DNA of 27,218 nucleotides from an uncultured Chlamydiaceae bacterium. GTDB taxonomy: Bacteria > Chlamydiota > Chlamydiia > Chlamydiales > Parachlamydiaceae. The stretch covers positions 1 to 27,218 of the forward strand of contig CAMFKA010000001.1 in the NCBI GenBank assembly GCA_945957185.1, read 5' to 3'. Position 1 is the stretch's first letter. Each line of letters begins with the position of its first letter. Below the pieces are notes generated by a model, which had not been told where the DNA came from, ran no database searches, and saw nothing but the letters and a program-made list of their open reading frames with translations. The position numbers were made by a program, and so were the translations under genes. Below, in pieces: positions 6,869 to 11,781 of this stretch.

Positions 6869-8473
6869 ATGGTATCAGCGAGTGGATTAGCGCAATCTAA
6901 AACCGAAAATCATCATTGGATTGACTCGATACATCCTGCTACAAGTTCCATTTTTGCCCCATTACAAGGGTGTGTTTACGAAAACATTTCTAAAGAGCGT
7001 TTCCAAAAAGTTGATGCCAACGGTAATCGAAAATTTTATCAGCTCACTCTGCATACAACAAATCATACTAAGCGTGTTCTTTACATTTATAGTGCTGCAC
7101 TCGAGCTTCTTGGCTTATGCCACGAAGAGTTATCTAGTCGGAAAAGAAAAAACGCTGTCTACGCTTATGTGAAAGAACAATTAAATAAATTGTCTCCAGA
7201 GTCTCAATGGAAGCTTAGGTTGCTCTATCCAATGTTTCAGAATTACGTGTTGAACGAACCAATTCGGAAGACCCTTCGACCTAGCATCGTCAAACAGTCA
7301 CTGCCTCCCTACAATAAACGGATTCTTATCCAACTTCTCCATGAGGCTGCACATAATACTTCGCGACTTGTGCGTTACAACGCTCTTGCTGGTAATCTGT
7401 CTCTTGAGGAAGCTGTGCTGTGTACAACATTATGGCGACGTGCTGAGGGAATTTTCCGCGCGTTGATAACAAATGAAAATGTCACGATTGTCTCACCTTG
7501 CGGACGACTTGTAGGAAAAGGTACTTATCGCAATACGTTTCAGGTGTTTAATTATTCAGTTGGTCGCACTCAAGTCCATTCCGTGCCCTCTTTAGAAAAC
7601 AAACCAAAAACTCCTGCAGAAAGCCTTCTATATGAGAAGAAAATGGATCACCAAGAACGAGAGATAAAAATTGTCGCTCATATTCACAAGAGGGAGCCGA
7701 AATCTATACCAGGAATCATTAATGCTCCCTTTGCTCTGTTAACTTTTTTAAAACAGGACCTCAAGAGGATTTATCACCATTCAATCGTGACTCAATACGA
7801 CTATTCTCTCTATGACTATTGTCAAAATGCACAAATTCCAACACAGGAATTTTCTCGCTTAACAAACGTTTTAAAACAACTTTTTAGTGGGTTAGCTTTC
7901 TTAAAGAAAGTTGGAGTGATTCATGGCGATATTAAGCCGGAGAACATCTTCGTAAAGGGTTCGGGGTTTCGTGTAGTCATTGGAGATTTTGGGGGATCGA
8001 TTTTGAAAGATGAAGTCCAATTAGACCTTAAAAATATCATGCAAACACCGTTTACAGCGCAGTATTTAAGCGATTTTGATTTTATGGGAATGGTAAATGC
8101 AATCATTACAAATTCTAAAGAGACTTGGACGAAAATGGCCTATGCTCACGATCTGTCTGCAATGGCATTGACAGTACTGCAGATGATGACGCGAAAATTG
8201 TACGCTCCAATGACACGTGTTCATAATTCAAAATTCAAAAAAATTTTTAAAAGTCATGTAGAGGACATGGAATTGCCCGCCCACCATTCTTATGCCTCTT
8301 TGCTAGACCTGAGTCAATTTAGCTTCAAGCTCATCCGAAGATTATTAAAAGAAGCCAAAATGGAAAATGACAATTTGATACTTATTTTTAGGCATTGTTT
8401 GCGCTGTGCGCATCAGCAACGCCCTTCTCCTTCAAAAGTGATACACGATTTAAATAGGTTTGGTTTTCACTAA
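6869..8473 (+). CDS. Ser/Thr kinase-like protein, paralog 1 (putative secreted effector)
   Basis: Motifs GKGTY, HGDIKPEN (7922-7945), DFGG, HDLSAM and QRPS. Shares its N-terminal domain with the next two genes. The start is uncertain (GTG 6860, ATG 6866 or ATG 6869); AGGTG spacing favours 6869. Confidence 0.85.
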   Translation: MVSASGLAQSKTENHHWIDSIHPATSSIFAPLQGCVYENISKERFQKVDANGNRKFYQLTLHTTNHTKRVLYIYSAALELLGLCHEELSSRKRKNAVYAYVKEQLNKLSPESQWKLRLLYPMFQNYVLNEPIRKTLRPSIVKQSLPPYNKRILIQLLHEAAHNTSRLVRYNALAGNLSLEEAVLCTTLWRRAEGIFRALITNENVTIVSPCGRLVGKGTYRNTFQVFNYSVGRTQVHSVPSLENKPKTPAESLLYEKKMDHQEREIKIVAHIHKREPKSIPGIINAPFALLTFLKQDLKRIYHHSIVTQYDYSLYDYCQNAQIPTQEFSRLTNVLKQLFSGLAFLKKVGVIHGDIKPENIFVKGSGFRVVIGDFGGSILKDEVQLDLKNIMQTPFTAQYLSDFDFMGMVNAIITNSKETWTKMAYAHDLSAMALTVLQMMTRKLYAPMTRVHNSKFKKIFKSHVEDMELPAHHSYASLLDLSQFSFKLIRRLLKEAKMENDNLILIFRHCLRCAHQQRPSPSKVIHDLNRFGFH

Positions 8474-8497
8474 CCTCCAAAAGAATAAAGGTCCATC

Positions 8498-10150: not shown

Positions 10151-10167
10151 ATTAAGAGGGAAACGTC

Positions 10168-11781
10168 ATGGCAGCATCAACAAGTTTAGCGACACCAATC
10201 AGTTCTCAAAGGATTTCTTGGTTAGATCTTTGCGCTACACGCAAACGACAGTTTCTTGAACCGTTACAAGCATGTATCTACGATCAGATTTCCCCCGAAA
10301 AAATTGCGAAGACTGATTCAAGGGGCTATAAAAAATATTATCCATTCACTGTTTATACCAGACGGCAATCACACACATTTTATATCTATCAGGCCTCTCT
10401 GACACTACTAGGATTGTCTGTTGACGAAATGAACCGAAAAAAAAACTGTTACTACTACGTATCCAATGGATTAAAAAGGCTGAATGAAGAGAAAAAGTGG
10501 AGATTGAGACTTTTTTATCCGATTTTTAAACAATATTTAAGGCACGAACAGTTTCAGGATGTATGTAAACCGCAAGAAGTGGATCCTAACTTTCTCTCTT
10601 ATAATAAATACAACCTTGTGCGGTTGTTTTTAGGGGCAATAATGCACAGTTCACGGCAGATTCGATCCAGCAAATTGAGCAATCCCGTGACTGATGTAGA
10701 ACAGCTAATATGTACAACCTCTTGGAGACTTCCGGAAGGAATGTTCAATGCAATCGTCACCTATGATGCTGTATCCATTTTTTCCCCTATCGGCACTTTG
10801 AAGGAGTCAGGAAGCTTTTGTAAAGCTTATCGTGTTTTTAATTACACAGAAGGGTGTGTTCAAATCCAACTGAAACCTAATTGTATCGAATTTCCCGAAA
10901 ATGGAGATGACCTTTTTGCCAATGCAAAAAATTTAGAGCACATGAAACGAGGCATTAAAATTACGGAATACCTCTATAAAAAAAGTGCTTCAAAACGCCT
11001 TTATGGAATTGTCGATGCACCCGCAATCTTGGCTTATTCGAAACCTTATTCAGCAACAATCTATCAAGATACCATTACGACCAAATACGATTATCCGCTC
11101 GATGAGTATGTCTTCAATCCTACAATACCATCTTATCAAATATCGAGCATCGTCAGCTGTATCCGGCAATTATTTCATGCGATAACGTATTTGAGAAAAC
11201 ATCACGTTATCCATGGAGACATCAAAATGGAGAATATTCTTGTAAAAGGCACAGCGACTTTTGCTCTCGCTGATTTTGGCGGAGCGATTTTAGAGAGCGA
11301 AGCGGCTCCTAATTTGAATTCAGTCCTTCAAACAACTTTTTCCGACGTCTATGTCAATGGAAATGATTTACTTCAGATAGTTGGCGCGGTAAAAAATAGT
11401 GCTCTCAAGACATGGAGAGAGATATCCTATGCGCGAGATTTAGCTGCCACCGCATTAGTTTGTTTACAGATGGTCGCCAGAAAAGAGATTTTGCCGGAGC
11501 GAACCACTCATCTAACAGCTCTTCATGCTCTCTATGATGGATGTGAAGGGTTTAGCGGTGAAGATGCTGTAAAAAAATTCCCTTCGTTATTGGATTTATC
11601 GCAAATACAACCCACAACAATCGAGTCTGCGTTCAAGAGTGCAGGCATTCGCAACACTTCTCTCATACAACTATTTAAACGTTGTTTGTCCAATAATTAC
11701 CGAATCCGACCGGTGGCTAAATACGCCTCGGCACATTTTACTGCAATTGCGCCTTTAGTGTTGTGTGAGAGCACATTATGA
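10168..11781 (+). CDS. Ser/Thr kinase-like protein, paralog 3 (putative secreted effector)
   Basis: Motifs ESGSF, QIQLK (Lys at 10873), HGDIKMEN (from 11212), DFGG, RDLAAT and IRPV. RBS GAGGG. Confidence 0.85.
   Translation: MAASTSLATPISSQRISWLDLCATRKRQFLEPLQACIYDQISPEKIAKTDSRGYKKYYPFTVYTRRQSHTFYIYQASLTLLGLSVDEMNRKKNCYYYVSNGLKRLNEEKKWRLRLFYPIFKQYLRHEQFQDVCKPQEVDPNFLSYNKYNLVRLFLGAIMHSSRQIRSSKLSNPVTDVEQLICTTSWRLPEGMFNAIVTYDAVSIFSPIGTLKESGSFCKAYRVFNYTEGCVQIQLKPNCIEFPENGDDLFANAKNLEHMKRGIKITEYLYKKSASKRLYGIVDAPAILAYSKPYSATIYQDTITTKYDYPLDEYVFNPTIPSYQISSIVSCIRQLFHAITYLRKHHVIHGDIKMENILVKGTATFALADFGGAILESEAAPNLNSVLQTTFSDVYVNGNDLLQIVGAVKNSALKTWREISYARDLAATALVCLQMVARKEILPERTTHLTALHALYDGCEGFSGEDAVKKFPSLLDLSQIQPTTIESAFKSAGIRNTSLIQLFKRCLSNNYRIRPVAKYASAHFTAIAPLVLCESTL

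Follow-up and report, generated by a model that had tools for sequence, protein, structure and literature searches.

Pseudokinases are recognised from sequence by the lack of at least one of the beta3 Lys, the HRD Asp and the DFG Asp (PMC12599244). Bacterial families without the beta3 Lys have been catalogued, some of them predicted to bind ATP, and the kinase or pseudokinase families DLHK, DYD and ActPs2 lack this Lys in its canonical form; Chlamydia is unmentioned in that review (PMC12599244). The Chlamydia protein Pkn5 (CT673) is a putative pseudokinase secreted by the type III secretion system (T3SS) (PMC5177608). The window analysed here is a stretch of 27,218 nucleotides (contig CAMFKA010000001.1, assembly GCA_945957185.1) from an uncultured Chlamydiaceae bacterium. 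It contains three tandem genes for kinase-fold proteins, named copies 1, 2 and 3, and the beta3 Lys is absent from all three. We read them, with moderate confidence, as in-place tandem paralogues of a rare, lineage-restricted, fast-evolving kinase, which would have decayed stepwise and would now act as nucleotide-binding proteins and effectors. The source genome is a 1.85-Mb metagenome-assembled genome (MAG) that is 80% complete.

As in Ser/Thr kinases (PF00069), the fold is bilobal, and the single-copy relatives of the window proteins have the Gly-loop, the VAIK Lys, the alphaC Glu, HxD...N and DFG. Unlike these kinases, the window copies lack the VAIK Lys and contain an N-terminal domain without a fold match, and their family is of the non-RD (HGD) type. 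Pkn5, compared here by its description, is likewise a soluble chlamydial kinase-fold protein in which conserved catalytic residues are missing, and it is taken to be an effector (PMC5177608). The Pkn5 gene is located in a T3SS operon, whereas the window genes occupy a slot of the form pbp2-kinase(s)-lplA; no Pkn5-specific family is among the NCBIfam matches of the window proteins. The eukaryotic WNK and KSR kinases share the missing beta3 Lys together with intact HRD and DFG motifs, a combination that allows for residual or atypical activity or ATP binding (PMC12599244). Unlike WNK and POMK, the window family has no Lys at the WNK beta2 position and no conserved POMK-type Lys in the Gly-loop. 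KSR, DYD and ActPs2 have Arg at the beta3 position, where the window family has Ser, Leu, Ile or Val.

The Toxoplasma proteins ROP5, ROP18 and ROP17 are tandemly expanded, polymorphic, secreted pseudokinase and kinase effectors, and ROP5 partners fully active kinases. The window resembles them as a tandem of fast-evolving kinase-fold genes in an intracellular parasite, with a dead copy beside less degenerate ones, and they serve here as a working analogy. ROP5 differs in being eukaryotic and unrelated beyond the fold; the window trio has no canonical copy and is a candidate for secretion. In Mycobacterium tuberculosis, the pbpA-pknA-pknB genes encode tandem Hanks-type kinases directly 3' of a class B penicillin-binding protein (PBP) gene. 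The window shares this arrangement, with its kinase genes in tandem directly downstream of a PBP gene. PknA and PknB are membrane-anchored, canonical and conserved, and PknB has PASTA domains, whereas the window proteins are soluble, Lys-less, fast-evolving and confined to a narrow lineage.

The three genes and their shared N-terminal domain are as follows.

6860-8473, forward strand: copy 1, 537 residues, an N-terminal domain (residues 1-214) and a kinase domain (Pfam Pkinase)
8498-10150, forward strand: copy 2, a 550-residue pseudokinase with the two-domain architecture of copy 1 (weak Pfam match; hhalign)
10168-11781, forward strand: copy 3, 537 residues, with the two-domain architecture of copy 1 (Pfam Pkinase)
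6860-7501, 8498-9139 and 10168-10791, forward strand: N-terminal domain of about 210 residues, present in all family members

Copy 1 starts with GTG at 6860, from which its residues are numbered; alternative ATG starts are present at 6866 and 6869. The gaps between pbp2 and copy 1, copy 1 and copy 2, and copy 2 and copy 3 are 0, 24 and 17 nt, and all of these genes are on the same strand. Copy 3 is 35% identical to copy 1.

Copies 1 and 3 match Pfam Pkinase (PF00069) at 46.1 bits (E 5.5e-12) and 44.4 bits (E 1.8e-11), above the gathering cut-off of 31.7 bits. Copy 2 falls under this cut-off, with 13.5 bits and an E value of 0.049, and is homologous to canonical family members over its full length (hhalign probability 99.95%, E 8e-38, 490 columns). 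The AlphaFold2 (AF2) model of copy 1 has a pLDDT of 81.5 and a pTM of 0.78 and shows the bilobal kinase fold. In Foldseek searches against the PDB, this model matches FGFR2, Pho85, BRAF and CDK6, with E values down to 6e-11 and a TM-score by target of about 0.7. Among solved sequences, DYRK2 comes closest to the N-lobe and B-Raf to the C-lobe; in a phmmer search with the kinase domain of the family member P0017, no PDB sequence matches at 1e-5. The family is of the eukaryotic-like Ser/Thr type and belongs to the non-RD kinases (HGD), and the Glu of the APE motif is apparently replaced by an invariant Asp. The window proteins are not of the PASTA or PknB type: no transmembrane segment is found in the three copies, in which the top Kyte-Doolittle 19-residue window is 1.06-1.44, and the match to NF033483 reaches about 25 bits, where the cut-off is 450.

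The N-terminal domain is conserved across the family at two positions, W20 and K153, which are invariant in 14/14 members, copy 2 included. Modelled separately with AF2, it has a pLDDT of 82. A VIA-align comparison with 48,161 chains gives no convincing match (best Z 4.2), a search of the AFDB clusters gives nothing below E 0.45, and a feature search of the ESM Atlas gives no usable match. The full-length copy 1 model matches only kinases among the AFDB clusters, none of which has the two-domain architecture. In 199 other genomes sampled from the order, the domain profile has no credible match and one marginal match (E 3.8e-4). Residues 1-17 of copy 1 are disordered in the AF2 model, and the N-terminus is Ser-rich.

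The catalytic positions were assigned in a family alignment, A3, of 14 sequences, made up of seven single-copy relatives and seven members of the duplicated lineage. They are as follows.

7580-7582, forward strand: S241 of copy 1, at the beta3 Lys position (A3, DYRK2, HRI, AF2 hairpin)
7661-7663, forward strand: E268 of copy 1, the alphaC Glu, kept (A3, DYRK2; inside the modelled helix 252-276)
7922-7993, forward strand: HGDIKPEN (H355-N362) and DFG (D376-G378) of copy 1, intact (A3)
9218-9223, forward strand: I241 of copy 2 at the beta3 Lys position, with R242 at +1 (A3, hhalign)
9299-9301, forward strand: A268 of copy 2, at the alphaC Glu position (A3, hhalign)
9569-9652, forward strand: HTQIDSTT of copy 2 (Asp replaced by Q360, Lys by D362 and Asn by T365) and GFD (G383-D385) in place of DFG (A3)
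10870-10875, forward strand: L235 of copy 3 at the beta3 Lys position, with K236 at +1 (A3)
10951-10953, forward strand: G262 of copy 3, at the alphaC Glu position (A3)
11212-11280, forward strand: HGDIKMEN and DFG of copy 3, intact (A3)

In A3, the VAIK-type Lys (VALK, KAVK, LAIK, VLK) falls in a single column in 7/7 single-copy relatives, and the alphaC column contains Glu in six of these seven. DYRK2 and a profile built from the six canonical single-copy relatives can be aligned without a gap (E 8e-19), with the family Lys column on the VALK Lys and the Glu column on the Glu of EEIRIL. In the phmmer alignment of copy 1 with HRI, the AIK Lys falls on S241. In the hhalign comparison of the copy 2 clade with canonical members, I241 is aligned with the Lys, A268 with the Glu, HTQ with HGD and GFD with DFS, which is the DFG triplet of P0012. 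A3 assigns the beta3 Lys column to S241, I241 and L235 in copies 1, 2 and 3, and the DYRK2, HRI and hhalign alignments agree with this register. In the AF2 hairpin of copy 1 (beta2 224-231, beta3 236-243), S241 pairs with T226, which we take to be the equivalent of V57 of PKA, the pairing partner of K72 in that kinase.

A first-pass annotation of this DNA, made from the sequence letters, had proposed that each paralog lost a different catalytic element. The motif strings that it quoted are all present (QVHSVP, EREIKI, HGDIKPEN and DFG in copy 1; HTQ and GFD, the latter within GGFD, in copy 2; QIQLKP, KRGIKI, HGD and DFG in copy 3), and its observations are partly confirmed. It correctly described copy 1 as keeping the alphaC Glu, HGDIKPEN and DFG (A3, DYRK2 profile), copy 3 as having Gly at the alphaC Glu position with HGD and DFG kept, and copy 2 as having lost the HRD Asp and the DFG Asp (A3). 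Its beta3 register is one residue off, as the structural check that it had proposed indicates for copy 1. For copy 1, the Lys is absent as claimed, and the position in question is S241, not V242. The Lys that copy 3 was said to keep is K236, and the Arg assigned to the beta3 position of copy 2 is R242; both are the +1 residue. In a beta strand, the residue after the beta3 Lys faces the opposite side of the sheet. Three of the seven single-copy relatives, all of which bear the Lys, also have a basic residue (Lys or Arg) at +1, as in the common AIKK pattern. The Glu that copy 2 was said to keep belongs to AAAEY, five residues upstream of the alphaC column, at a position unconserved among orthologues; the canonical column is A268 in the three copy 2 orthologues (A3, hhalign).

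The losses in the three copies are thus nested, not complementary, a pattern that points to stepwise kinase decay. The beta3 Lys is absent in 7/7 members of the duplicated lineage, in which its column contains Ser, Leu, Ile or Val, and the alphaC Glu is absent in 6/7. HTQ and GFD are common to copy 2 and its orthologues P0008 and P0010, and the A268 column is Ala in all three. By the sequence definition, all three window proteins are pseudokinases: of the three defining residues, only the Lys is missing from copies 1 and 3, and all are missing from copy 2. The earlier statement that no copy is canonical therefore holds more strongly than proposed, since every copy is without the beta3 Lys. Activation in trans was among its explanations; no copy has a beta3 Lys to give to the others, so there is no sequence basis for trans-complementation. 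An allosteric partnership or a host cofactor, which it had also suggested, may still play a part. The interpretation given with those observations is partly supported.

The array is present in metagenome contigs. At the junctions of pbp2 with copy 1, of copy 1 with copy 2 and of copy 2 with copy 3, and at most codons of the motifs, contigs from four runs of three studies show zero differences; one of these runs may be the sample from which the window was assembled. These contigs across the junctions argue that the array is not an assembly chimera. For the catalytic motifs of copy 1, a metagenome contig over 7560-8271 is identical, and the HTQ/GFD region of copy 2 has identical contigs in three runs. 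In the bioreactor run X5, a variant strain (window positions 11227-11259) carries M354V in copy 3, a change at only the x of HGDIKxEN, and two synonymous changes. Near-identical DNA is present in fish-gut (two studies), bioreactor, wastewater and sludge metagenomes, which suggests a protist- or animal-associated environmental chlamydia.

The family is rare. An exhaustive profile search of 1.84 billion cluster representatives gives about 12 full-length relatives, and a search of a 5.8-billion-cluster collection with copy 3 gives no further copy 3 orthologue. In the scan of genome contigs, a MAG of the same genus (G001) contains the only true family member, and the other loci kept are generic kinase matches. 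The slot after pbp2 contains three genes in the window, two in the loci L025 and L026 and one in other relatives. In L025 and L026, a copy 1-type gene and a copy 2-type gene are followed by DNA resembling repetitive extragenic palindromes (REP), and copy 3 is absent. At four related loci, a single kinase gene comes immediately after pbp2, and in three of them its start overlaps the pbp2 stop. In L107 and L108, pbp2 is followed by one kinase gene with both Lys and Glu, the start of which overlaps the pbp2 stop, and by lplA on the minus strand. The P0007 contig has one catalytically complete kinase gene directly after pbp2, and its downstream neighbour is a 35-aa fragment. In G001, one canonical kinase gene adjoins lplA, away from pbp2. 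The lplA neighbour is common to L107, L108 and G001.

In the maximum-likelihood tree, the sequences of the duplicated lineage are united with support of 92/91. The copy 2 clade is supported at 100/100, and its stem is 1.93 changes per site long. Support is 97/95 for the copy 1/3 clade, which has four members. The Lys state changes once on this tree, in the stem of the duplicated clade. The Glu state changes three times, and one of these changes is in the singleton P0014.

The most economical history has the Lys lost first and the Glu, once deprived of its partner, drifting away later. In this history, the window lineage lost the VAIK Lys a single time, ahead of the duplications, the first of which separated a copy 2 type from a copy 1/3 type. 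The alphaC Glu and the Asp residues of HRD and DFG then disappeared from copy 2, as did the Asn in the window, and copy 2 persists as a conserved, fully dead pseudokinase. The partnerless alphaC Glu was also lost in copy 3 and in two copy 1-type orthologues, with HGDIKxEN and DFGG kept.

The kinase genes evolve much faster than their neighbours. Between the window and L025, identity is 94% for PBP2, 96% for Tsf, 97% for RpsB and 92% for PyrH, as compared with 42% for copy 1 and 45% for copy 2. The nonsynonymous rate (dN) of the same pair is 0.52 for copy 1, 0.48 for copy 2 and 0.036 for pbp2. The canonical single-copy kinases evolve just as fast: those of L107 and L108 share 28% identity, as against 83% for their PBP2 proteins. 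In the only unsaturated comparison, that of L025 with L026, the ratio of dN to the synonymous rate (dS) is 0.25 for copy 1, 0.21 for copy 2 and 0.06 for the 3' end of pbp2. Values of 0.21-0.25 indicate that the kinase genes are under selection and are not pseudogenes. Judged by these substitution rates, both the Lys-less and the fully dead copies are maintained by purifying selection.

Copies 1 and 3 probably still bind Mg-nucleotide. These copies keep the base Asp, the gamma-phosphate Lys and the Asn of the catalytic loop, as well as the DFG Asp, all of which have decayed in copy 2, and this makes nucleotide binding likely. Weak or atypical phosphotransfer without the canonical Lys has, in our estimate, an even chance of being the activity of copies 1 and 3. 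That they are instead non-catalytic, nucleotide-dependent switches or scaffolds is a real possibility that we place somewhat short of even. Copy 2 is probably a non-catalytic partner or decoy. We lean towards secreted (type III), host-directed effectors as a more likely role than an intrabacterial one, because the family evolves very fast, is narrowly distributed and has a disordered, Ser-rich N-terminus, and because Pkn5 sets a precedent. The type III secretion gene sctV (SctV) is present in the genome.

Several observations weigh against parts of this account. None of three groupings is rejected by the approximately unbiased (AU) test (p 0.10, 0.42), so copies 1 and 3 may have separated either before or after the L025/L026 lineage branched off. 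Between the window and L025, dS is saturated and dN/dS is unreliable. Although no more than 25% of the columns of the copy 1/3 clade are invariant, H-G-D-I-K-x-E-N and D-F-G-G are all among them; this conservation of HGD and DFG rests on four sequences, however, and concerns positions that the family as a whole conserves. A beta-bulge may bring K236 of copy 3, or K220, K248 or K250 of copy 1, into the active site. Among the sequencing runs searched, no RNA sequencing run carries the locus. The translational coupling to pbp2, with the kinase start overlapping or abutting the pbp2 stop, is kept in the window, L025, L107, L108 and the P0007 contig. Coupling of this kind would be uncommon for an effector gene and is in keeping with a role inside the bacterium.

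In the alternative that survives best, none of the three proteins is catalytic; they would be scaffolds, decoys or allosteric regulators of another kinase or a host target, in which HGD and DFG serve only fold stability or a nucleotide-dependent conformation. This alternative is tentatively possible. Loss of the beta3 Lys makes a pseudokinase by the usual definition (PMC12599244), the Lys is absent in 7/7 clade members and the alphaC Glu in 6/7, and the chlamydial Pkn5 is a precedent for a secreted pseudokinase. A scaffold needs no invariant base Asp, gamma-phosphate Lys, Asn or DFG Asp, however, and copy 2 shows how quickly catalytic residues are lost in this family when they are dispensable.

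In a second alternative, the proteins are intrabacterial regulators of PBP2 or cell division, like those encoded by pbpA-pknA-pknB of Mycobacterium tuberculosis, and not effectors. The position of a kinase gene directly after pbp2 in the window, L025, L107, L108 and the P0007 contig favours such a role, but a core division regulator is expected to be conserved and widespread. The family has a dN 7-14 times that of pbp2, and its N-terminal domain profile is found in 0/199 other genomes sampled from the order. The G001 gene is not next to pbp2, and no transmembrane or PASTA sensor is present. An intrabacterial role is consequently rated unlikely.

A third alternative is that copies 1 and 3 are fully active by means of a non-canonical Lys (K236 through a beta-bulge, K220 in the GKG loop, or K248 or K250) and that only copy 2 is a pseudokinase. 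The invariance of HGDIKxEN and DFGG in the copy 1/3 clade, their decay in copy 2 and the overall purifying selection are consistent with activity, and WNK (Lys in beta2) and POMK (Lys in the Gly-loop) are precedents for a relocated Lys (PMC12599244). The candidate lysines are nevertheless unconserved among the four clade members, which have Arg once and Cys three times at the WNK position. The alphaC Glu is absent in three of the four. K248 and K250 lie in the beta3-alphaC loop of copy 1 (helix 252-276) and have no counterpart in copy 3 or the orthologues, in which this loop is acidic and Lys-free. A scan of the N-lobe of the copy 1/3 clade gives no invariant Lys or Arg that is absent from canonical members. 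This alternative is doubtful, and the WNK-type use of another Lys suggested by the first-pass annotation does not hold, since the beta2 position is R, M or C and the copy 1/3 clade has no conserved N-lobe substitute.

At the third-Gly position, which was considered as a site of WNK-type relocation and rejected, the residues are R224, M224 and C218 in copies 1, 2 and 3, and Cys in both copy 1-type orthologues. In the copy 1/3 clade, only one basic invariant is clade-specific: K366, which follows the catalytic loop and is shared by P0007.

A more elaborate possibility is that copies 1 and 3 and their orthologues are long-standing phosphotransferases and form a naturally Lys-independent clade of protein kinases, mostly without the alphaC Glu and without a conserved substitute, that the dead copy 2 is their obligatory allosteric partner and that the trio would be secreted as a module; this is quite improbable. 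Repurposing of the kinase fold for AMPylation or glutamylation, as in SelO and SidJ, where the usual beta3 Lys/alphaC Glu pair is unneeded, is very unlikely: bacterial kinase-fold effectors with altered motifs do carry out other chemistry (PMC12599244, PMC6858067) and the metal-binding residues are kept, but there is no sequence sign of a second nucleotide pocket or of a SelO/SidJ-type motif set, and the closest solved matches are ordinary DYRK, CDK, RAF and FGFR kinases.

A single genomic slot in close genomes shows the stages of a canonical single gene, a Lys-less pair and a Lys-less trio. The locus is thus a natural experiment in the passage from kinase to pseudokinase, in which one lineage lost all catalytic residues and the other kept the catalytic loop and DFG. 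It bears on whether HxD and DFG without the VAIK Lys amount to residual catalysis or to nucleotide binding only, and on the decay of the alphaC Glu once its Lys partner is gone. It also adds a fast-evolving, lineage-restricted candidate effector family to the environmental chlamydiae. The interest is limited by the uncultured organism and the handful of sequences, and bacterial pseudokinases and Lys-less families are already recognised.

The slot is bounded by the following features.

3713-6859, forward strand: pbp2, 1048 residues (open reading frame call; orthologous genes with Pfam PBP_dimer and Transpeptidase; 94% identical to the L025 PBP2)
11782-11889, no strand: a long, imperfect inverted repeat with GC-rich octamers, between the convergent copy 3 and lplA (sequence reading)
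11890-12600, reverse strand: an lplA-like lipoate-protein ligase gene at the downstream edge of the slot (Pfam LplA-B_cat, E 5.7e-22)

The pbp2 gene is the first gene of an apparent operon, upstream of the three kinase copies. A scan for consensus promoters and terminators gives none above shuffled expectation. Between the window and L025, dS is 1.1-2.1 for pbp2 (3713-6859) and 0.28-0.41 for tsf and rpsB (1814-3498). This excess could be caused by codon bias in highly expressed genes or by recombination around the pbp2-kinase region.

The repeat at 11782-11889 is built from ACGCGGAG-type octamers, and the same octamer family is present 3' of copy 2 in L026 (3643-3922). The word depth of the contig in four metagenome runs is about 4-7x and rises to 35-80x at 11836-12000, a jump that points to a multi-copy REP-like element. 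The repeat is likely to be both a bidirectional terminator and such an element.

A second soluble kinase of 476 aa is encoded in the same genome (G000 contig C19; L005 550-1980). Its motifs are canonical (YALKK, REARVL, HGDIKPEN, GDFGG), and its catalytic-loop signature is that of the trio. Its N-terminus is unlike that of the trio, and its gene is located outside any T3SS cluster.

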